The position numbers were made by a program, and so were the translations under genes. From Haemophilus parainfluenzae (lineage in GTDB: Bacteria; Pseudomonadota; Gammaproteobacteria; Enterobacterales; Pasteurellaceae), in contig JAGZQB010000002.1 of NCBI GenBank assembly GCA_018382395.1, positions 32,200-96,199 of the forward strand: a stretch of DNA of 64,000 nt. The letters are read 5' to 3'. The notes under the pieces were generated by a model that had not been told where the DNA came from, searched no databases, and worked only from the letters and a program-made list of their open reading frames with translations. Positions within the stretch are counted from its first letter, which is position 1, and each line of letters starts with the position of its first letter. Positions 21,301 through 50,956 of the stretch are shown here, piece after piece.

Positions 21301-21765
21301 ATGGACATTCGTAAAATCAAAAAACTGATTGAATTAGTAGAAGAATCGGGTATCACTGAATTAGAAGTGCAAGAAGAAGAAGGTACAGTACGTATTAGTC
21401 GTGCGGCACCAGCTGTTGCACCTGCTGCAATTCAATATGCAGCGGCGCCAGTTGCACCGGTTGCGGCTCCGGCAGCAGCGCCAGCACCTGCAGCGGCAGC
21501 ACCTGCGGAAGCGCCTGCAGCTGAAGTGTCTGGTCACCAAGTACGCTCACCAATGGTGGGTACATTCTATCGTAGTCCAAGCCCAGAAGCGAAAGCTTTC
21601 GTGGAAGTGGGACAAACAGTCAAAGTAGGCGATGCACTTTGTATCGTTGAAGCAATGAAAATGATGAACCGTATTGAAGCTGATAAAGCTGGTGTGGTTA
21701 AAGCAATCTTAGTAAATGATGGCGAAGCGGTTGAATTTGATCAACCATTGATCGTTATCGAATAA
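21301..21765 (+). CDS. accB: biotin carboxyl carrier protein of acetyl-CoA carboxylase
   Basis: Ala/Pro-rich linker; biotinylation motif EAMKMMN. Confidence 0.95.
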
Positions 21766-21825
21766 TCCCTATCAATCTGAAATGGCGAGCTTTCTCGCCA
21801 TTTTTTCACCCAAGTGGAAATTGTT

Positions 21826-37199: not shown

Positions 37200-37308
37200 G
37201 TTAAAATTTTTTTGAACAAGATCACATTTTAAACATTTGTTGGTTGAAAGTTTGTAACATTCATTTAACATCGCAAATAGTTCATCTGTAATCAGTTTGG
37301 AGGGACTC

Positions 37309-38694
37309 ATGAACGAAACAAACACAACTAAAAATTATAAAAGTGGGATTATCTTTCTGCTGGCGATAGCCTGTTTTTTTATTTTATTAAAATCTTTACC
37401 TTTCGCACCTAAGGAAAATGCTGGTTTAGCATTATTAGCCTTTGTGGCGATTCTTTGGTTAACTGAGGCATTGCATGTCACAGTGACCGCTCTTTTGGTG
37501 CCATTGCTTGCGATTTCACTTGATTTGGTGACAACCAAGCAAGCTTTAGTCGCGTTTGCTGATCCAACCATTTTCTTATTCTTTGGTGGCTTTGCTTTAG
37601 CGACAGCTTTACATATACAAAAGCTCGATAAAATGATTGCCAATAAAATCATGGCAATGGCTCGTGGAAATTTATTTGTAGCTATTATGTATCTTTTCTC
37701 TATTACTGCTTTCCTTTCCATGTGGATGAGTAACACAGCAACAGCAGCCATGATGTTGCCTCTAGCGATGGGGATCTTAAGCAAACTTGATAAAGAAAAA
37801 GAACATAATACTTATGTCTTCGTATTATTAGGGATTGCATATAGTGCGAGTATTGGTGGTATGGGTACATTAGTGGGTAGCCCACCAAATGCTATTGTTG
37901 CAAGTAACTTACATTTAACCTTCTCTGATTGGTTATGGTATGGCTTACCAATTATGCTCATTTTGATGCCGTTGATGATTGGTACACTTTTCATTGTCTT
38001 TAAACCAAAACTTAATTTACATTTTGAACAAAACTTTGAACGTATTGAAATGAATGGCCAACGCGTTTTAACGCTTGTGATTTTTGCTTTGATTGCACTC
38101 TGCTGGGTATTCAGTAGCTATATCAATCCAATCATTTCAGGTGTATTTGGTCTTGCTAAAAATATAGGTAGTTTTGATAGTGTGGTCGCATTACTTGCTG
38201 CAGTTATCATTTGTTCAACCGGTGTGGCAAATTGGAAACAAATCCAAGAAAGCACTGACTGGGGTGTATTGATGCTTTTCGGTGGCGGTTTAACCTTAAG
38301 TGCGGTATTAAAAGATTCAGGCGCAAGTAAAGTGTTAGCTGACGGTATTGTATTCTTGGTTCAAGGACAACATTACTACCTCATTGGTTTATTGGTCGCA
38401 ACCTTCATTATTTTCTTAACTGAGTTTACTTCCAATACCGCGAGTGCAGCGTTATTAGTACCAATCTTTATTTCTATCGCGCAATCTCTCGGTATGCCGG
38501 AAATTGGTCTTGCGTTAATTATCGGTTTAGGTGCATCTTGTGCCTTCATGTTACCAGTGGCGACACCGCCAAATGCAATCGTATTTGGTACAGGTGAGGT
38601 TCGCCAAAGTGATATGGTTAAAGCCGGATTTATCTTAAATATTGTATGTATACTCGTTATCGCGACAATAGGATATTATTTCTGGTTGAATTAA
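37309..38694 (+). CDS. DASS/SLC13-family sodium-coupled anion (dicarboxylate/sulfate) symporter
   Basis: About 460 aa; two-fold repeat with SNT motifs (WMSNTATAAMM..FTSNTASAALL); ATG at 37309 preceded by GGAGGG. Confidence 0.8.
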   Translation: MNETNTTKNYKSGIIFLLAIACFFILLKSLPFAPKENAGLALLAFVAILWLTEALHVTVTALLVPLLAISLDLVTTKQALVAFADPTIFLFFGGFALATALHIQKLDKMIANKIMAMARGNLFVAIMYLFSITAFLSMWMSNTATAAMMLPLAMGILSKLDKEKEHNTYVFVLLGIAYSASIGGMGTLVGSPPNAIVASNLHLTFSDWLWYGLPIMLILMPLMIGTLFIVFKPKLNLHFEQNFERIEMNGQRVLTLVIFALIALCWVFSSYINPIISGVFGLAKNIGSFDSVVALLAAVIICSTGVANWKQIQESTDWGVLMLFGGGLTLSAVLKDSGASKVLADGIVFLVQGQHYYLIGLLVATFIIFLTEFTSNTASAALLVPIFISIAQSLGMPEIGLALIIGLGASCAFMLPVATPPNAIVFGTGEVRQSDMVKAGFILNIVCILVIATIGYYFWLN

Positions 38695-42061: not shown

Positions 42062-42102
42062 AAAGTGCGGTGAGAAAATAAAGTGTTTTTAGACCGCACT
42101 TT
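42062..42102. terminator. USS inverted-pair terminator
   Basis: aaagtgcggtgagaaaataaagtgtttttagaccgcacttt. Confidence 0.65.
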
Positions 42103-42177
42103 GTCTATTATGGCTATTTGCCATTCGGCTTATTGCTCTCTATAATGCCAAAAAATTTTCAAATCAAGGAAGGAAAC

Positions 42178-43002
42178 ATGCAGTTTTCCAAAATGCATGG
42201 CCTTGGCAATGACTTTGTCGTTGTTGATGCTGTGACGCAAAATGCCTATTTTACCCCTGAAACCATTAAACGCTTAGCCGATCGTCATCGTGGCATTGGT
42301 TTTGATCAGCTTTTAATTGTTGAGCCACCTTATGATCCAGATTTAGATTTCCATTATCGTATTTTTAATGCCGATGGTAGTGAAGTGTCGCAATGTGGAA
42401 ATGGGGCAAGATGCTTTGCGCGTTTTGTCACCTTAAAAGGGTTGACCAATAAAAAGGATATTGCAGTAAGCACGCAAAAAGGAAAGATGGTTTTAACGGT
42501 AAAAGAAGATGGGCAAATTCGCGTCAATATGGGCGAGCCGATTTGGGAACCCAATAAAATTCCTTTTACTGCCAATAAATTTGAAAAAAACTATATTTTA
42601 CGTACCGATGTTCAAACGGTGCTTTGTGGTGCAGTATCAATGGGCAATCCACATTGTGTTGTTCAAGTGGACGATATTGAAATGGCCAATGTAGCAGAGT
42701 TAGGTCCACTCTTAGAAAGCCACGAACGTTTTCCTGAAAGGGTAAACGCTGGATTTATGCAAGTCGTCAATCGTAACCACATTAAGTTGCGTGTATATGA
42801 GCGTGGTGCTGGTGAAACGCAAGCTTGTGGCAGTGGGGCGTGCGCAGCGGCAGCTGTTGGGATGATGCAAGGTTTACTTGATAACAAAGTGCAAGTTGAT
42901 CTACCCGGTGGTAGCTTACTTATTGAATGGGAAGGGGTAGGTTCACCGCTTTATATGACTGGCGATGCGACTCATATCTATGATGGCAACATTCACCTTT
43001 AA
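42178..43002 (+). CDS. dapF: diaminopimelate epimerase
   Basis: [19 protein letters not shown].. identical pattern to E. coli DapF; catalytic CGNGARC and GSGACA. Confidence 0.92.
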
Positions 43003-43011
43003 TCTTTTCTA

Positions 43012-43050
43012 ATCTGAATAAAAAATGCGTGGAGATTATCACGCATTTTT
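43012..43050. terminator. bidirectional terminator
   Basis: aaaaaatgcgtggagattatcacgcattttttatt. Confidence 0.6.
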
Positions 43051-43053
43051 TAT

Positions 43054-43806
43054 TTATTGTTCAACTTCCACATCACGCTGATTTAATGGTTGCGTTGGGC
43101 GGTTGTTTTTCCCTTCCATTTCTTCTATCGCAGCAATTTGTGCTTTGCTTGCTTGAATTGGTGATTTAAAAATGGTCCAAGCTACGTTTTCACTACAAGG
43201 TGGAGTAGTGAGTGAGCCATTTAAGCGGAAGCGTGCCATCTCTTTTGGCATTAGCGCTTTAATATCAATCTGTTGAGCCAATTTTTCTTTTTGTCCAACG
43301 GTGAGTTTTTTCTCAACTACTGGTGCTAATGCTGGATTAGCTTCGCCTTCATTGACCATTACGGCAACAACCGCTAACGCTTTATCTTCACTTTGATGGA
43401 CAAAATGAATTTCTAAAGGATAATGTTGGCGTTTAAAAGTATGTTCACTTGGTGTGTGAAAGTGAAATTGTTTTAAATAGAATGGTTTATTGTTGAGCGT
43501 AATAAATGGTGCATTTTCTTGTGCAACACTGACTTGCACAGTATGTCCATTGTTTTCTACTTGATAAGCTGCAGGGAAATAATTCATCTTAAGTGGTTTA
43601 TTTGCCACTTTCATGCTGTTATCAGCTTCGAGATTAACAGGCGACTGAACTTTCCCTAGCTTACAGGTTTGGTATTCAGTGAGCAAATCCCCCCAATGTT
43701 CAGGGCTTTCTTTTCCATTATAAGACCAATGCGCTTTATGCGTTTGGGCAAATGATGTTGCGCTTAATGCGATAAGTAAGCTAGAAAGCAATAGACGAGT
43801 CTTCAT
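43054..43806 (-). CDS. periplasmic alpha-class carbonic anhydrase
   Basis: Signal peptide MKTRLLLSSLLIALSATSFA; HWSY.G...P.HW and QFHFHTPSEH zinc-ligand His motifs; start ATG at 43806 with AGGAGAGG RBS. Confidence 0.85.
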   Translation of the reverse strand: MKTRLLLSSLLIALSATSFAQTHKAHWSYNGKESPEHWGDLLTEYQTCKLGKVQSPVNLEADNSMKVANKPLKMNYFPAAYQVENNGHTVQVSVAQENAPFITLNNKPFYLKQFHFHTPSEHTFKRQHYPLEIHFVHQSEDKALAVVAVMVNEGEANPALAPVVEKKLTVGQKEKLAQQIDIKALMPKEMARFRLNGSLTTPPCSENVAWTIFKSPIQASKAQIAAIEEMEGKNNRPTQPLNQRDVEVEQ

Positions 43807-43959
43807 AAGGCACCTCTCCTTTTTTGTGGTATATGCCTCATCGATTCTACTGATTCTGTATGATAGCTTTTTGATTTTGGTCAAGTTTTGTTTGACTGTA
43901 AGCACTCATCGTACGAGTGGGGATAATACTAAAAAGCAGTCTATTCTGACTGCGCTTTT

Positions 43960-44892
43960 TTAGCACTGACAGAGTCGTTCTCTCAGATCTTCTGCTGTTT
44001 TGCTGGTTTTAATTCGCTCAAAAACGATGTCTGCTTCAGGATATTCTTTATTGAGATAGCGTAGCCATTGTTTGATGCGGGCAACATGATAAAAACCAGA
44101 ATCATGGAAATTTTCCATTTCTGCATATTTTTGCAAGATTTTTTGAATATCTTCCCAAGGCATTTTTTCGCAGTTTTGTTTAAGTACAAGGCTTAAGTTT
44201 GGGATATTTAATGCCCCACGCCCGACCATTAGATCTTCGCACCCTGTCGCTTTTAAACATGCTTGACCATCTTCCCAACGCCAAATTTCACCATTAGCAA
44301 TCACCGGGATCGTCAAGCGAGATCTCACTTCACCGATTTTTTCCCAATTGATGCGCTCGGCACGATACCCATCGGCTTTGGTTCGACCGTGAATAGTGAT
44401 TTCAGTCGCACCACCTTGTTGTACGGCGTCGGCAATTTCAAACGCTTGTGAAGTACAATCCCAACCTAATCTTACTTTCACACTGACAGGTAAATGACTA
44501 GGTACGGTTTTTCGCAAGGCTAGAGTCGCTTGATAAATTAATTCAGGTTGTTTGAGAAGTGCTGCACCTCCGTTGCTCCCATTAACGGTTTTGGATGGGC
44601 AGCCACAATTTAAATCAATACCATGTGAGCCAAGCTCAATGGCGCGATTAGCATTTTCAGCAAGACAGTTCGGATGTTGACCTAAAAGTTGGACACGAAC
44701 AGGTGTTTTAGAAGGGGTAAAGCCCTGATTTTTGAGTTCAGGGCAAAGACGATAAAAGACTTTTTCAGGTAAGAGTTGATTTACCACTCGGACAAATTCG
44801 GTGATGCAGAGATCATATTCGTTCACTTCGGTTAAAAGTTGGCGAACGAAGGGATCAAGCACCCCTTGCATGGGGGCGAGGATAACACGCAT
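43960..44892 (-). CDS. dusC: tRNA-dihydrouridine(16) synthase
   Basis: [21 protein letters not shown]..; DUS TIM-barrel motif NCGCP. Confidence 0.85.
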
Positions 44893-45758
44893 TATTTCCA
44901 GCCTTTCACTTTACAAATTAAATCGTAAGCGGCTTGGATTTGTTGTGCTTTTTCTTTAGCCATTTCCATCATTTCTGGCGGTAAGCCTTTCGCGACTAAT
45001 TTATCTGGGTGATGCTCATTCATTAAACGACGATATGCACGTTTTACGGCATTACGATCATCGCTTTCACTTACGCCCAATACTTTATAAGCATCACTTA
45101 ATGTTGGGCCAGAAGATTGTTGATATCCGCCTTGTTGTTGGTATTGGTAGCCACCTTGCTGTTGATAACCGCCTTGTTGGTATTGGCGATAGAATCCACC
45201 TTGGGTAAATTGGCGAGCCGCAATTTCCATTGCCAGCATTTGCTCAAACTGCATACGGGAAAGGCCAAGCTCTTCAGCCACCACATAAAGTACTTCTTTT
45301 TCCGACTCATGTAATTGAGAATCAGCAAATGCAGCCTGCACTTGCACGTGTAAAAACATTCTCAGCAAGTCAGCTCGTTGTCCACATCCAATGCGGAATT
45401 CGCGAATCACCTGACGTAATGGAAAATCTGCTTCTTTACCGCGACGAAAGGCCTCTTGAGCAAGTTTGCGATGACTCTCATCTAATTGCATCTGGTTCAT
45501 CAACTGATTTGCCAGTTGAATATCTTCTTCCGTCACACGACCTTTGGATTTACTTAAATGCCCAAGTACCGCAAAAGTAGTTTGCATAAAGAGTGCTTGT
45601 CGGGTCGTTTTTTTCTTAAAAAAGCTAGAGTTAACCGAACCAAGCTCATAGAGTTTTTTATCTGCGATAGAGCCTAAAATAAGTCCAGCGATAGCGCCGA
45701 AAAAGCCCCCCCATTTAAAACCGAGAAAAACGCCGATAATCTTTCCAAAAAAATACAT
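44892..45758 (-). CDS. djlA: co-chaperone DjlA
   Basis: N-terminal TM helix, central TerB-like domain, C-terminal J-domain with HPDK; Gln/Gly/Tyr-rich linker (QQGGY)n. Confidence 0.85.
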
Positions 45759-45864
45759 TCTCTTCCCCTAAAGTGCGGTCAAAAGGTCTTTTGACAATAA
45801 TGGGCAGACGCAAATGTCTGCCCTTACATTAATATGGCTTTATTCTTATTTTTCAAGTGATGAA

Positions 45865-47295: not shown

Positions 47296-49038
47296 TTATG
47301 GATTTGCTTGTTCAAACTCACGAATTTTATTAAACACATCTTGTAAATCTGTACCATAGTTAATTTTTTGCAATTCAGGCACAGAGTTAGATTTTACTAA
47401 CATTCTGAGTGGTTGGAATTGCATATTGCACAAGTAGATTTGTTGATGTGGCAACATATGTTGTACAAAGTGGGTGAGTGCATGAATACCCCCTGTATCC
47501 AGAACAGTCACGGCATCGCATTGTAATACGATATGTTTTATCTCGTGATCGGTATGTACGGTTTTATCGTGCAAATCTGCAAAGAGTTTATCTGCCGCTG
47601 CAAAGAACAATGGACCGCTGATACGATAAGCTAACACATCATCTAAATCTTCTGGCACAGGTTGTTCAATCGTTTTTGTCATTTCTGCAATGGTACGGAT
47701 AAATAAGAGGCTCGCTAATAATACGCCGACAGAGATGGCGATTACCATATCAAATAACACAGTGAGAATTAAGCAAGTGAACAACACAGCAATTTCGTTT
47801 TTTGTGGAGCGACGCGCCAAACGAATGATTTCAGGTACATTCGCCATATGCCAAGCTACCATTAATAGCAATGCAGCCATAGAAGAGAGTGGTAAATAAG
47901 ACAGGGCATTCGCAAAGAATAATAGCGAGAATAAAACTAAGAGTGCATGAATTACACTGGCTATTGGTGATACCGCTCCAGATTTTACATTGGCTGCGGA
48001 ACGTGCAATTGCCGCGGTTGCCGTAATGCCGCCTAAGAATGGTGAAATAATATTACCTAAACCTTGGGCGAGTAATTCATTATTGGAATGATGTTTGGTA
48101 TCCGTCATATTATCTAAGATGACCGCACAAAGTAGCGATTCAATTGCGCCTAATACAGCCATTGAAAAGGCTGCAGGCAAGATATCTTGTATGCGATCAA
48201 AATTCCAATTGATGACTTCACCTTGTGCATTAGGAATATTCCAAGGTAAGGCAAATTCAGGCAAGACATTAGGGATACCATGTCCTGTTGTACCGTCAGA
48301 TAAGGTATATTGGAATGCCGTACCAATAGTTTCAACGGAGAAACCAAATTGTCCTAAGGCTAATGCCATAAGTGTCCCAATAATGACCGCAGGTAAATGA
48401 CCCGGCACGGGTAAACGAAGCTTATGCCATTGGGTGAGTACAAATAATGTGACTACACCAACAGCGGTATCTGCCCAGTTAATCGTCGGAAGTGCGGTCA
48501 AAATAGCTTGCACTTTTTCAATATAGTGAGGTGGCATCTGAGCAATGTCTAAACCTAAGAAATCTTTGATTTGCAGAGTGCCGATGGTGATCCCAATTCC
48601 GCAGGTAAAGCCAAGTGTAACGGGGAGAGGAATGTACTCAATTAATCGCCCTAATCGCGATAAGGCCATAATAACTAAAATAATCCCCGAAAGTAGTGTC
48701 GCCATAAGTAACCCGCTGAGCCCAAATTGTTGGGTAACGGGATATAAAATCACGACAAATGCGGCGGTTGGCCCAGAAATATTAAAACGCGATCCACCGG
48801 TTAACGCAATCACGATACCAGCCACGATAGCAGTATAAAGACCGTGTTGTGGTGGAACACCGCTGGCGATCGCCAAGGCCATGGAGAGGGGAATCGCAAT
48901 AACTCCCACGGTGAGACCCGCGATAATATCTTTTATCAATTTTTGTTTTCCGTAACCTTCACGGAAAGATTCTTTCAATGCGCTAAATGGTTTTACCGCC
49001 AAAAACACATTTTTAGAAAAGAGTGATTTGATTTGCAT
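47296..49038 (-). CDS. SulP-family anion transporter with C-terminal STAS domain
   Basis: 580 aa; SulP TM core plus STAS domain. Confidence 0.85.
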
Positions 49039-49163
49039 AAAAATACGACGATAGAAAAGAGATAAGTTTATATTTTAGCTAAAAGGAAAAGGATTTTTTA
49101 TGTTCTAGCTCAAAAAACTTGACTAATCTTAGATAAATCTTTATATTTCACGCACTTCAAAAC

Positions 49164-49253
49164 GGTGAGATGTCCGAGTGGTTGAAGGAGCACGCCTGGA
49201 AAGCGTGTATGTGCGAAAGTGCATCGGGGGTTCGAATCCCCCTCTCACCGCCA
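49164..49253 (+). tRNA. serW: tRNA-Ser (anticodon GGA)
   Basis: GGTGAGATGTCCGAGTGG..CCTGGAAAGCG..GGTTCGAATCCCCCTCTCACCGCCA; long variable arm; near-identical to E. coli serW/serX. Confidence 0.9.
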
Positions 49254-49371: not shown

Positions 49372-50559
49372 TTAGCGCCAACGTATACCAACACCTGCAC
49401 CCGCACCAAAATCACCACGGCTACTTGCAGTACCGCCTACTTTAAATAGTAGTTTGCCATTATCAGAAGCACGAGAATAACCGACTGCTAGCGCACTTTC
49501 ATTACGGAAAGTTCCTGCACCTACACCAAGCACGCTTTCCCCAGAAGTAATTGCTTGGGGGACTTGTGTTAACGCAATAGCGCTAGAAATCCCTGCACGT
49601 AATTTTTTCACGTTGTGTTTCAAATCTGAGCGCAATGATTCAGTAGAACGTGTCATTTCAGAGCGTAAATCAGAAATCTCTTTTGTATTTGTTATGACTT
49701 GATTTGATAAGTAATCTAAACGTGAAGCGTTGTTCGCAATATTTTGCACGTTATTGTTTACTTTATCAGCAAGTGCTTTGGTGTTTTGAGTATTACTTGA
49801 TGAATTATGGCTGATTCTATTTTTTAGATCATCGATATCAGTTCTGTTCGTTTGAATATTGTTTGTATTATTTTTTACTTGGTTATCTAGGTTATTTAGA
49901 TTTTTTTCGGTATCCGTAACACGCCCTTCTACACCCGTGATACGATTATCTAAATCCTTACGATTCTCCGTAATACGATTATCTAAATCTTTGCGATTTT
50001 CAGTAATTCTTTCATCTAGTACTCGGCGATCTTCAGTAATGCGACCATCTAAACGACCCACTTCATCATTGATGCGATTATTTAGATTTTTATCTGTTTG
50101 ATTTAAACGTTCATCAACACCAGTAATACGATTATTTAAATCTTTCTGAGCATTGGTGATGCGATCATCAAGACGTCCCACTTCAGTTGTTACACGATTA
50201 TCAATTTCAGTTTGAGTATTCGTAATACGTTCATCTAATGCTCGACGATTTTCTGTGATATCTTTATCTAAACGCCCCACTTCGTTATTAATGCGGTTGT
50301 TGAGATTTTTATCTGTTTCATTAATACGATCATTTAAATTTTTGTCCGTTTGATTTAGTCGAACATCGACACCCGTGATGCGATCGTCAAGTTCTTTACG
50401 CTCATTTGTAATTCGATTATCAAGAACTGAACGAGTTTCAGTAATACGCTCGTCGAGTCTTCCTACTTGAGTATAAACTTCAGTTTTTGTTGCGCTATCT
50501 TCTGCGAAAGCAAGAGATGCACTTCCAAATAAACATACAAATAATAGTGTTTTTTTCAT
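49372..50559 (-). CDS. small trimeric autotransporter adhesin (Oca/YadA-like family) with hendecad-repeat coiled-coil stalk
   Basis: Signal peptide MKKTLLFVCLFGSASLAFA; about 15 consecutive 11-residue repeats (LDxRITxxxxx); C-terminal YadA-type anchor ..AIALTQVPQ..GVGAGTF..ALAVGYS..KVGGTASSRGDFGAGAGVGIRW. Confidence 0.75.
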   Translation of the reverse strand: MKKTLLFVCLFGSASLAFAEDSATKTEVYTQVGRLDERITETRSVLDNRITNERKELDDRITGVDVRLNQTDKNLNDRINETDKNLNNRINNEVGRLDKDITENRRALDERITNTQTEIDNRVTTEVGRLDDRITNAQKDLNNRITGVDERLNQTDKNLNNRINDEVGRLDGRITEDRRVLDERITENRKDLDNRITENRKDLDNRITGVEGRVTDTEKNLNNLDNQVKNNTNNIQTNRTDIDDLKNRISHNSSSNTQNTKALADKVNNNVQNIANNASRLDYLSNQVITNTKEISDLRSEMTRSTESLRSDLKHNVKKLRAGISSAIALTQVPQAITSGESVLGVGAGTFRNESALAVGYSRASDNGKLLFKVGGTASSRGDFGAGAGVGIRWR

Positions 50560-50750: not shown

Positions 50751-50827
<77 letters not shown>

Positions 50828-50879
50828 ATTTTAAGGGTTACATCTTTTGTATGGAATTTCGAGGGAAATATAAAAGAAG

Positions 50880-50956
50880 TGGTCGGCGAGATAGGATTTG
50901 AACCTACGACCCACTGGTCCCAAACCAGTTGCGCTACCAAGCTGCGCTACTCGCCG
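50880..50956 (-). tRNA. proL: tRNA-Pro (anticodon GGG)
   Basis: Reverse complement CGGCGAGTAGCGCAGCTTGGTAGCGCAACTGGTTTGGGACCAGTGGGTCGTAGGTTCAAATCCTATCTCGCCGACCA; matches E. coli proL. Confidence 0.9.

Follow-up and report, generated by a model that had tools for sequence, protein, structure and literature searches.

The closest described systems are the α-class carbonic anhydrases (CAs) of other bacteria. The enzyme of Neisseria gonorrhoeae (structures 1KOP/1KOQ and 8DPC) is like the Haemophilus parainfluenzae protein in class, in size (about 225 residues when mature) and in having a signal peptide (predicted in H. parainfluenzae), the zinc triad, a His proton shuttle, the Thr/Glu gatekeepers and one disulfide. 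Along the full length of the mature enzymes the two are 42% identical (E = 6e-55, model TM about 0.77–0.87), and both organisms are naturally competent and live on human mucosa. Gonococcal CA is regarded as a drug target; in H. parainfluenzae, by contrast, TnSeq finds the α-CA gene to be non-essential. The best sequence and structure matches are the thermostable α-CAs of hydrothermal-vent bacteria (Thermovibrio ammonificans 4C3T, Persephonella marina 6IM0, 6EKI, Sulfurihydrogenibium 4G7A/4X5S; E = 3e-62 to 1e-52, TM up to 0.90), with the same fold and catalytic residues; these organisms and their habitats are unrelated and the likeness is one of compact bacterial α-CA architecture, not of near kinship. 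More distant (about 30% identity, E = 2e-33, TM 0.76–0.84) is the periplasmic α-CA of Helicobacter pylori (4YGF), which shares the fold and, according to PMC4444264, is coupled to urease in acid acclimation; unlike it, the H. parainfluenzae locus has no urease linkage. The β-class enzymes of H. influenzae (HICA) and of H. parainfluenzae itself carry out the same overall reaction as the α-CA. CAs of the β class are cytoplasmic and their fold is unrelated to that of the α class. A precedent for an oxygen-regulated periplasmic CA is the α-CA AcaP of Rhodopseudomonas palustris, a phototrophic alphaproteobacterium, which Puskas and colleagues reportedly found in 2000 to be expressed anaerobically and needed for bicarbonate use. 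As to regulation, class II FNR-activated promoters of Escherichia coli (e.g. nirB, dmsA and narG) have their site centred at −41.5. The putative CA promoter described below resembles these in having a TTGAx-N4-xTCAA inverted repeat overlapping the position of the absent −35 element, and differs from them in that the one dataset bearing on it is without an oxygen response.

The gene lies between dapF and dusC in the window (the whole stretch of DNA analysed, 64,000 nucleotides; Table 1). The neighbours were identified by profile search (DapF, TIGR00652, E = 3e-105; DusC, NF007838, E = 7e-156), and the DapF and CA proteins are 98–100% identical to Haemophilus parainfluenzae records. The exact CA protein is present in NCBI under the name ‘carbonic anhydrase family protein’, and the TnSeq table of PMC11406952 (Table S7) lists the gene as ‘Carbonic anhydrase, alpha class’ between dapF and a dihydrouridine synthase gene; the α-CA gene of H. 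parainfluenzae is an ordinary one whose annotation already exists. The reading frame (250 aa) has its ATG at 43804–43806 and its stop codon at 43054–43056 on the minus strand, and these coordinates are exact. In the program-made list of open reading frames it runs on to a GTG at 43905 (283 aa). This longer version was rejected and the ATG at 43806 taken as the start because of the strong Shine–Dalgarno sequence there, the signal peptide and the starts of the homologues, and because the extra N-terminal part would run across the conserved promoter. The 22 aligned homologues are about 233–280 aa long (mostly 243–259) and their M1 is nearly invariant.

An earlier note on this DNA had described the gene as a secreted α-CA of bacterial type inserted between dapF and dusC, and as not part of the canonical H. 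influenzae core. The α class, bacterial type, predicted signal peptide and insertion all stand. The contrast with the H. influenzae core is inapplicable as the genome is that of H. parainfluenzae, and the gene is not unusual, being found at dapF–dusC in all 10 representatives of the H. parainfluenzae complex and already named in NCBI and the TnSeq table. The same note had held that universal presence in H. influenzae genomes would make the gene unremarkable and, since every H. parainfluenzae-complex representative has it, the spirit of that statement applies. Overall we think it probable that the locus is best explained as a competent, Sec-exported α-CA on an old, fixed insert of about 0.9 kb, with an inferred class II promoter and a role in CO2 supply.

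Table 1. Positions of the CA gene and associated features in the window.
Feature	Position	Strand	Basis or remark
Whole dapF–dusC interval, 957 bp	43003..43959	.	About 50–100 bp in Rodentibacter
Bidirectional intrinsic terminator common to the convergent dapF and CA genes	43017..43054	.	15-nt arms, 8-nt loop
CDS, α-class carbonic anhydrase precursor	43054..43806 (including stop codon)	−	PF00194, PDB matches, AlphaFold model, catalytic residues
Predicted signal peptide, residues 1–20, MKTRLLLSSLLIALSATSFA	43747..43806	−	n/h/c layout; predicted cleavage after S-F-A
Shine–Dalgarno sequence AGGAGAGG	43813..43820	−	Read from sequence; does not vary between the H. parainfluenzae loci compared
Candidate −10 hexamer TAGAAT	43844..43849	−	Conserved at 21 nt from the FNR-type box
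FNR-type box TTGACCAAAATCAA	43871..43884	−	9/10 match to TTGAT-N4-ATCAA
Imperfect inverted repeat CACTCGTACGATGAGTG, upstream edge of the conserved cassette	43903..43919	−	H. parainfluenzae loci
Terminator hairpin just past the dusC stop	43936..43953	−	Terminator scan, found on both strands

A candidate FNR-type promoter

The gene itself matters little, as a standard bacterial α-CA that is present in essentially every H. parainfluenzae, annotated and dispensable in vitro; its sole new feature is a conserved upstream site suggesting that it may be turned on when oxygen is scarce. If transcription begins 7–8 nt past TAGAAT (an inferred start), the FNR-type box is centred at about −40.5 to −41.5. 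Within the 64-kb window TTGAYNNNNATCAA is matched at this one place, a count that is not above chance (one found vs. an expected mean of 0.97, with at least one in 41 of 100 shuffles); the support for it as a putative FNR site comes from position and conservation, not from mere occurrence. Box, 21-nt spacing and −10 are conserved upstream of CA in four chromosomal contexts while the sequence of the spacer has diverged, with the −10 hexamer being TAGAAT in H. sputorum and at locus L097 and TAAGAT in H. pittmaniae, and in Bisgaard taxon 10 a perfect FNR-type box lies upstream of the CA gene. The composite pattern of box, spacer and −10, which was defined post hoc from sequences already viewed, occurs five times in 423 kb and on each occasion directly upstream of a CA gene; it should be noted that the four Haemophilus-clade cassettes are not fully independent because they share ancestry. 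The inverted repeat further upstream varies slightly among the H. parainfluenzae loci examined; its core, TACGATGAGT, is common to H. sputorum and is where the DNA homology between the cassettes of the two species starts. H. parainfluenzae and H. sputorum stand on the two sides of the Hin-type/Apl-type uptake-sequence divide.

A scan for −35/−10 consensus promoters did not pick up TAGAAT because there is no −35 hexamer at 16–18 nt from it. The hexamer TTGACC, which is 29 nt from the conserved TAGAAT, was considered as an ordinary −35 and rejected, there being no −10-like sequence 16–18 nt downstream of it in either H. parainfluenzae or H. sputorum, and a CRP site was rejected on the grounds that both half-sites are TTGA/TCAA and not GTGA/TCAC. 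From the arrangement of these elements we put the prediction that the CA promoter is class II and FNR-dependent at close to, if a little short of, an even chance. An FNR dimer would bind the box, centred near −41, in place of the absent −35 element and, if FNR does substitute in this way, our proposal is that CA would be made chiefly under oxygen limitation. The CA genes of Actinobacillus equuli, Cardiobacterium valvarum and Neisseria chenwenguii were found to lack an upstream FNR-type box, so that the Neisseria-type relatives examined differ from H. parainfluenzae in this respect, and the box was not enriched among 78 environmental α-CA loci, which disposes of FNR boxes as a general trait of bacterial α-CA genes. 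Our search of the literature yielded nothing on FNR control of any bacterial α-CA and nothing specific on the CA of H. parainfluenzae or on periplasmic CA in Pasteurellaceae; carbonic anhydrase is mentioned neither in a paper analysing the FNR regulons of Pasteurellaceae (PMC1805755) nor in that on the gonococcal anaerobic stimulon.

Oxygen response and possible roles

Published data for H. parainfluenzae strain ATCC 33392 do not include α-CA among the genes changed at least twofold between anaerobic and aerobic colony biofilms (PMC11406952, Table S5). This RNA-seq result argues, weakly, against strong anaerobic induction under the conditions used; it is weak evidence because the dataset separates FNR-on from FNR-off states poorly. 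Several typical low-oxygen genes (grcA, cydAB, aspA and pckA) fell anaerobically, 5% CO2 was present in both arms, and the anaerobic response was termed ‘unremarkable’ by the authors; the words ‘nitrite reductase’ appear nowhere in the supplement file. TnSeq in the same study (Table S7) scored α-CA as ‘N’ (non-essential) in six conditions, biofilms included, and metagenomes hold independent alleles that disrupt CA (a 10-bp deletion, a 2-bp insertion and a nonsense mutation). The α-CA is dispensable in the laboratory and is lost now and then via frameshift. Since H. parainfluenzae also has a β-class CA, which is conditionally essential in strain EL1 (PMC11406952), the α-CA is an addition and not a replacement; a third CA gene is labelled just ‘Carbonic anhydrase’. 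With α-, β- and third CAs in one of the commonest commensals of the human mouth, the species is a handy one in which to ask about periplasmic vs. cytoplasmic CA.

These data bear on a reading that we regard as possible if somewhat unlikely, namely that the same periplasmic α-CA is under constitutive control, or under that of CO2/bicarbonate or pH, and captures CO2 as bicarbonate for growth at low CO2, with TTGA-N6-TCA either belonging to an atypical promoter or serving another regulator, whether of the CRP/FNR family or unrelated. The nearest characterised pathogen enzyme is that of N. gonorrhoeae, for which a low-CO2 role has been proposed, and the lack of a box in the Neisseria, Cardiobacterium and A. 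equuli relatives and the absence of α-CA from the anaerobically regulated genes of PMC11406952 would also fit. Set against this are the half-sites, which are of the FNR and not the CRP type, and the distance from box to −10, which is that of a class II FNR promoter and has been kept while the spacer sequence diverged. In addition, the conditionally essential CA in EL1 is the β-class one, and the α-CA is therefore not the main supplier for the bicarbonate requirement.

For an FNR-controlled α-CA the likeliest use would be to speed the periplasmic equilibration of salivary and plaque bicarbonate with CO2. CO2 might thus go on entering the cell at the rate that carboxylation by PEP carboxykinase demands, a step that in Pasteurellaceae feeds fumarate respiration and the production of succinate. 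When H. parainfluenzae grows as an anaerobic biofilm, both this enzyme and fumarate reductase are conditionally essential. Such a link of α-CA to C4/fumarate metabolism is, in our estimate, unlikely taken by itself. We also advance, tentatively, a broader picture in which the cassette moves among Pasteurellaceae of human and animal mouths with its own class II FNR promoter, across the Hin-type/Apl-type divide, is induced by oxygen limitation and, in bicarbonate-rich plaque, supplies PEP carboxykinase and fumarate respiration with CO2. If true, a cassette carrying its own FNR promoter would join the anaerobic regulon wherever it is inserted. From the candidate FNR-type promoter comes a hypothesis for dental plaque, in which equilibration of CO2 and bicarbonate in the periplasm would be tied to anaerobic C4 metabolism.

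We judge it improbable that the enzyme serves to buffer periplasmic pH near the pKa of CO2/bicarbonate, as the H. pylori α-CA does, in partnership with some periplasmic or cytoplasmic reaction that consumes protons or yields ammonia, for example urease or Nrf nitrite ammonification. Enzyme class and predicted compartment are those of the H. pylori α-CA (4ygf, E = 2e-33), H. parainfluenzae encodes a periplasmic Nrf nitrite reductase, and Nrf is under FNR control in related bacteria. However, neither urease nor nrf genes are linked to the CA gene, which has dapF and dusC beside it, and in all species examined the cassette is placed beside unrelated housekeeping genes. The gene is non-essential in biofilms, and we know of no acid-related phenotype.

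The dapF–dusC insertion

The insertion was examined by comparing tblastn gene maps of loci L011–L020 with those of L028 and L033, together with junction sequences of Rodentibacter. The order plsB–lexA–dapF–CA–dusC–djlA–pyrE–rph is found in 10 of 10 species representatives of the H. parainfluenzae complex and also in 10 of 10 metagenomic contigs with the identical CA protein, while two species of Rodentibacter show this order but lack CA, the junction there containing only an uptake-signal-sequence (USS) hairpin. As CA is present in all 10 representatives and the Rodentibacter junction is empty, we read this as an insertion of long standing that has become fixed in the lineage of H. parainfluenzae, and are highly confident that CA is an ancient, fixed insertion of a single gene. 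In H. haemolyticus purL directly follows dapF, and the 120 best CA homologues include no α-CA of the H. influenzae group.

Both flanking hairpins, which the earlier note had claimed as terminators, prove real by folding energy. That at 43017–43054 has arms that are 100% complementary, with an A run on one side and a T run on the other (−17.3 kcal/mol, z = −8.9 on the minus strand; −19.5 kcal/mol, z = −7.7 on the plus strand), and in H. sputorum the cassette has a conserved counterpart of its 3′ half. The hairpin at 43936–43953 (−15.2 kcal/mol, z = −5.0) sets the transcription of dusC apart from the CA promoter. The gene is a promoter–gene–terminator cassette of about 0.9 kb. In the mechanism that we propose this self-contained unit, complete with promoter, ribosome-binding site and terminator, would have entered long ago between the convergent dapF and dusC, and would now be fixed in the H. 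parainfluenzae species complex.

H. sputorum, H. pittmaniae and other Pasteurellaceae have relatives of the cassette elsewhere on the chromosome, adjoining unrelated housekeeping genes in each species examined. At third codon positions the cassettes of H. parainfluenzae and H. sputorum are 61% alike, vs. 43% for dapF over the same deep split (with H. parahaemolyticus dapF as proxy for that of H. sputorum), and this excess at synonymous sites suggests lateral transfer at some time. The varied sites of the cassette represent relocation or transfer of a single gene without mobile-element machinery in naturally competent bacteria.

A different account, implied by the earlier note, that the gene is a recently acquired, strain-variable accessory island with a part in niche adaptation, setting some Haemophilus strains apart from the core genome, is very improbable. 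The similarity figures just given, the patchy distribution of α-CA genes across Pasteurellaceae, at loci that differ between species, and the distant relatives on conjugative enterobacterial plasmids would agree with it, but CA occupies the identical site in every representative and contig above. The 90%-identity cluster of the protein has 3827 members, and the 92–99% identity of the CA proteins within the complex fits an old resident gene. The G+C content of the interval (0.38–0.41) is like that of the surrounding DNA, and an island of foreign composition was rejected, with neither a G+C nor a skew anomaly present. Mobility of the transposon or integron kind was also rejected, as dapF and dusC enclose neither an integrase nor a transposase gene and flanking direct or terminal inverted repeats are absent. 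A search of plasmids and phages gave no CA relative of at least 60% identity (plasmid relatives at most 45%, phage relatives below 30%), and such an origin was likewise discarded.

Enzyme and predicted export

The protein matches Pfam PF00194 (Carb_anhydrase) with E = 3.3e-46 and 158.4 bits vs. a cut-off of 27, residues 34–248 aligning with profile positions 2–252 of 254, which bears out the α-class assignment; an NCBIfam profile search returned no family for CA and is uninformative since no model in that library reaches it. Kinship with the Neisseria/H. pylori type, as the earlier note had it, agrees with the E-values to 1KOP and the H. pylori enzyme given above. Identity with solved bacterial α-CAs, the N. 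gonorrhoeae enzyme included, is 42–45% (elsewhere put at about 42–46% for the gonococcal one), and PDB sequence matches (4c3t, 6im0, 8dpc and 1kop) have E of about 1e-62 to 1e-55. The AlphaFold2 model has core pLDDT of 90–97 and in Foldseek bacterial α-CAs rank first with a probability of 1.00 and TM of 0.78–0.90 (6im0, 1koq and 4x5s).

The His-ligand motifs quoted in the earlier note are present in the sequence (AHWSY, PEHWGD and QFHFHTPSEH). His115, His117 and His134 align with the zinc ligands His94, His96 and His119 of hCA II, His88 with the proton shuttle His64, and Glu121 and Thr200/Thr201 with Glu106 and Thr199/200. In the alignment of 22 homologues all of these are invariant except His115, which is nearly so. 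Cys48 and Cys204, the only Cys residues, line up with the Cys pair found in NgCA and in the thermophile enzymes and match the conserved disulfide (Cys23–Cys203 in hCA numbering), Cys48 being invariant and Cys204 nearly invariant among the 22. The N-terminus, MKTRLLLSSLLIALSATSFA followed by QTHK, has the n/h/c layout of a Sec-type signal peptide, with a basic n-region, a hydrophobic core of mean Kyte–Doolittle value 2.1 and small residues at −3/−1 (S-F-A), in agreement with the signal peptide that had been predicted; in the alignment, the first residue of the predicted mature protein falls opposite residue 2 of the N. gonorrhoeae enzyme as crystallised. On reading the sequence no lipobox was found at the N-terminus, the sole Cys residues being 48 and 204. 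According to a review (PMC5746736) every bacterial α-CA then known has a signal peptide.

It is very likely from these residues that the protein is, as predicted, an active periplasmic α-CA. It would be exported by Sec to the periplasm, where the single disulfide Cys48–Cys204 would form; zinc-bound hydroxide, held by the three His residues, would interconvert CO2 and bicarbonate, with His88 closing the catalytic cycle as proton shuttle. That it is instead a catalytically dead CA-related protein with a binding or structural role has a negligible probability, for although such proteins exist in the α-CA superfamily (dioscorin is among the PDB matches) nothing specific points to one here, and the three zinc His, the proton shuttle, the Glu106/Thr199 equivalents and the disulfide pair are all present and invariant or nearly so. 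Sulfonamide CA inhibitors that patients take would probably act on this enzyme of a commensal as well and, because the α-CA is non-essential, little effect on growth is expected.

The carbonic anhydrase gene between dapF and dusC

The coordinates of the alpha-class carbonic anhydrase (CA) ORF that the earlier note had assigned to the interval between dapF and dusC were confirmed (see table), as were all of the His-ligand motifs quoted for it and the terminators on both sides, a hairpin towards dapF (free energy −17 to −19.5 kcal/mol; z-scores −7.7 to −8.9) and another towards dusC. The convergent neighbour is diaminopimelate epimerase, dapF (TIGR00652, E=3e-105), and the same-strand upstream neighbour is tRNA-dihydrouridine(16) synthase DusC (NF007838, E=7e-156). 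A GTG start at 43905 in a mechanical ORF list was ruled out because homologues start at the ATG. The class assignment was also correct, with an end-to-end match to Pfam Carb_anhydrase (E=3.3e-46), and the closest solved structures in a PDB sequence comparison are bacterial alpha-CAs (Thermovibrio 4C3T, E=3e-62; Persephonella 6IM0, E=6e-61); the suggested comparison with the N. gonorrhoeae (8DPC/1KOP) and H. pylori (4YGF) enzymes gave E values of about 1e-55 and 2e-33, and human CA II about 1e-25. Functional residues were placed by alignment to human CA II and the Neisseria enzyme: His88 corresponds to the proton shuttle His64, His115, His117 and His134 to the zinc ligands His94, His96 and His119, Glu121 to Glu106 and Thr200/Thr201 to Thr199/Thr200, and Cys48 and Cys204, the sole cysteines, to the conserved disulfide pair. 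The catalytic residues and this pair are invariant or nearly so across 22 aligned homologues. The core of an AlphaFold2 model has pLDDT 90–97, and Foldseek ranks bacterial alpha-CAs first (TM 0.78–0.90). By inspection, residues 1–20 are arranged like a Sec signal peptide, with a basic, a hydrophobic and a small-residue part; the predicted mature protein begins where the crystallised gonococcal enzyme does; and, according to a review, all bacterial alpha-CAs known when it was written carried such a peptide (PMC5746736). Residues, fold, signal-peptide layout and this review together make it very likely that the protein is an active, exported alpha-CA.

The gene had been set against the H. influenzae core, which was the wrong framing: the DapF of the window is 100% identical to that of an H. 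parainfluenzae genome, and the exact CA protein is recorded at NCBI as 'carbonic anhydrase family protein [Haemophilus parainfluenzae]' (MBS7127885.1 and others), in a 90%-identity cluster of 3827 sequences. Nor did the implied rarity hold, as the order rph-pyrE-djlA-dusC-CA-dapF-lexA-plsB is present in 10/10 contigs with the identical protein and in all 10 species-level representatives of the H. parainfluenzae complex recovered by DapF search (CA identity 92–99%). Published TnSeq data for strains ATCC 33392 and EL1 name the gene 'Carbonic anhydrase, alpha class' (PEG 884/834), with diaminopimelate epimerase on one side of it and tRNA-dihydrouridine synthase on the other, and score it as non-essential under all six conditions; a beta-class CA is listed too, as conditionally essential in EL1, along with a third CA gene (PMC11406952). 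A cluster of 145 truncated sequences represents genes broken at the same locus, and in metagenomic contigs of the species the lesions are a 10-bp deletion accompanied by further stop codons (two contigs) and a 2-bp insertion (one further contig). Such independently arisen lesions fit the TnSeq finding, in that not every condition requires the gene. Present at dapF-dusC in every contig and representative sampled, named at NCBI and in the TnSeq study, and non-essential there, this is therefore a core gene that was annotated before and can be dispensed with in vitro. It encodes an ordinary bacterial alpha-CA and is fixed in H. parainfluenzae. Only two leads are new: the cassette structure, whose insertion site differs among related species, and a predicted FNR-type promoter.

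Features of the CA locus and of the rest of the window (positions are those of the window unless a contig is named)
Feature	Position	Strand	Details
alpha-CA ORF	43054-43806	minus	250 residues, N-terminus MKTRLLLSSLLIALSATSFAQTHKAHWSYNG
Shine-Dalgarno sequence	43813-43820	minus	AGGAGAGG, upstream of CA ATG
Hairpin between dapF and CA gene			15-bp perfect stem, A and T runs either side
Second hairpin	43936-43953		3' of dusC stop
FNR-type box	43871-43884		TTGACCAAAATCAA, upstream of CA gene; 9/10 to TTGAT-N4-ATCAA
Imperfect inverted repeat	43903-43919	minus	CACTCGTACGATGAGTG, about 20 nt upstream of FNR-type box
Broken CA alleles	L103 2244-2986; L104; L105 1190-1944		H. parainfluenzae metagenomic contigs
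Rodentibacter junction pairs	L028 6835-6865; L033 6832-6860		Hin-type uptake sequences, forming bidirectional terminator
H. sputorum Apl-type sequences	L091 4862-4870 and 5815-5823		ACAAGCGGT, same orientation
Paired FNR-like boxes	21731-21761	plus	TTGAATTTGATCAA and TTGATCGTTATCGA, both 9/10, 3 nt apart
CitMHS/DASS transporter	37297-38694	plus	di-/tricarboxylate; adjoins plsB
SulP-family permease	47296-49038	minus	STAS domain; 3.5 kb from CA gene
FNR-like match	49028-49041		TTGATTTGCATAAA, 9/10; overlaps SulP start
tRNA-Ser	49164-49253		adjoins adhesin gene
Trimeric autotransporter adhesin	49372-50559	minus	395 aa; YadA-like membrane anchor, coiled-coil stalk
tRNA-Arg(TCT) and tRNA-Pro(TGG)	50751-50956	minus	ordinary features
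RpsF leader	61406-61491	plus	42.5 bits, Rfam gathering-threshold scan; ordinary feature

Insertion site and cassette

The same eight-gene order, but lacking the CA gene, recurs in Rodentibacter pneumotropicus and Rodentibacter genomosp. 1, whose dapF-dusC spacers of about 50–100 bp are made up of two uptake signal sequences in inverted orientation. By comparison, the 957-bp interval 43003-43959 is an insertion. Other genes follow dapF in H. haemolyticus (purL) and H. quentini. The inserted DNA showed no compositional anomaly, no mobility gene and no flanking direct or terminal inverted repeats, and plasmid and phage searches returned no close copy. In H. parainfluenzae neither dapF-dusC terminator is built from uptake sequences, none of which occurs across the 3.7 kb at 42102-45770.

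The nearest homologues are from uncultured Haemophilus (88–90%), H. sputorum (82%), a Pasteurellaceae contig (66%) and H. pittmaniae (62–64%), followed at about 50–56% by other Pasteurellaceae, Neisseria, Uruburuella and Cardiobacterium. In each relative the CA gene stands by itself, and its surroundings differ: in H. sputorum it has two hypothetical genes on one side and pqiA/ilvC on the other, in H. pittmaniae a DUF1440 gene and the rplN ribosomal operon, in the Pasteurellaceae contig it adjoins mog/glnB, and A. equuli, Bisgaard taxon 10, Avibacterium, Cardiobacterium and N. chenwenguii carry it at other sites again. DNA homology between H. parainfluenzae and H. sputorum runs from about 110 nt 5' of the ATG to the 3' half of the terminator, and the conserved unit is therefore promoter, gene and terminator, about 0.9 kb. 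Uptake sequences are all of the Hin type in the window (55, with no Apl-type) and all of the Apl type in the 10.7-kb H. sputorum locus (five, with no Hin-type), which places the two species across the deepest split in the family. Third-codon-position identity between them is 61% for the CA gene; the dapF value, taken from the comparison of H. parainfluenzae with H. parahaemolyticus, is 43%. This gives a hint, from one proxy gene and not decisive, that the cassette may have crossed between lineages after their split. The H. sputorum cassette lies between two Apl-type sequences (see table). Separately, many E. coli, Klebsiella, Enterobacter, Citrobacter and Raoultella plasmids carry an alpha-CA that shares 44% identity with the window protein, the same protein throughout hits H2-H10 (e.g. 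NZ_CP071438.1 4589-5257) and also on a 3.9-kb Salmonella plasmid; 144 of the 228 matching plasmid records are predicted conjugative.

Candidate FNR-type promoter and likely role

A promoter consensus scan found no −35/−10 pair at normal spacing upstream of the CA gene. TAGAAT lies exactly 21 nt downstream of the FNR-type box, and TTGAYNNNNATCAA has a single match in the 64-kb window (0.97 expected by chance). Similar arrangements precede the CA genes of H. sputorum (TTGACTAAAATCAA, 21 nt, TAGAAT), H. pittmaniae (TTGACCAAGATCAG, 21 nt, TAAGAT), the Pasteurellaceae contig (TTGATTCAGATCAG, 21 nt, TAGAAT) and Bisgaard taxon 10 (perfect TTGATTGAAATCAA, 22 nt, TACTAT), with a weak version in Avibacterium, and in all of these the spacer and surrounding sequence have diverged. 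The composite pattern, which was written after the sequences were seen, occurs five times in 423 kb on both strands (the window plus non-redundant loci), each time directly upstream of a CA gene. If the start lies 7–8 nt after the −10 hexamer, the box centre is at −40.5 to −41.5, as in promoters of E. coli that FNR activates in the class II manner. The box is absent upstream of the A. equuli, Cardiobacterium and N. chenwenguii CA genes and is not enriched across 78 environmental alpha-CA loci. The alpha-CA was not among the genes changed at least twofold between anaerobic and aerobic colony biofilms, it should be noted in 5% CO2; grcA, cydAB, aspA and pckA were lower anaerobically, 'nitrite reductase' appears nowhere in the supplement file and the authors termed the anaerobic response unremarkable (PMC11406952). 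These data are weak evidence against FNR control, and from the sequence pattern we predict an FNR-dependent promoter with slightly less than even confidence. The inverted repeat upstream of the box is kept across the H. parainfluenzae loci examined, its core TACGATGAGT being common to H. sputorum, and may be a second regulatory site. Neisseria-type alpha-CA loci (N. chenwenguii L102 and L110-L112) have another conserved box, TTGC(G/C)(T/A)TATATCAA (8/10 to the FNR consensus), about 95–135 nt upstream of the CA start, with no suitably spaced −10 hexamer in L102.

Enzyme class, catalytic residues and dispensability are established; a CA in the periplasm, its predicted location, would hold external bicarbonate and CO2 in rapid equilibrium, which would let CO2 entry match cytoplasmic demand. 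The main anaerobic carboxylation in Pasteurellaceae is by PEP carboxykinase, feeding fumarate respiration. Anaerobic biofilms of H. parainfluenzae conditionally require both PEP carboxykinase and fumarate reductase (PMC11406952), and in Actinobacillus succinogenes the formation of succinate has been suggested to depend in part on a CA (PMC3091790). A periplasmic CA under FNR control would suit such a scheme, but its link to PEP carboxykinase/fumarate metabolism is speculative, and we consider it rather unlikely; the alternatives are a Neisseria-like role in CO2 capture, with regulation other than by FNR, and periplasmic buffering as in H. pylori.

Other features of the window

Some SulP transporters are bicarbonate carriers. 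The SulP gene is 'Putative sulfate permease' PEG 889, 2.1-fold up anaerobically in ATCC 33392, and the CitMHS/DASS transporter is PEG 880, 2.1-fold down (PMC11406952). The latter is strain-variable, being replaced by a GATase_4 gene in three contigs with the identical CA protein (L005, L007 and L010). The adhesin spot also varies between strains, other contigs having 373–417-aa versions, a phage-type integrase (L004) or a direct passage to folD (L001, L005). The paired FNR-like boxes lie at the end of ORF 21301-21765, just upstream of an ORF starting at 21814.
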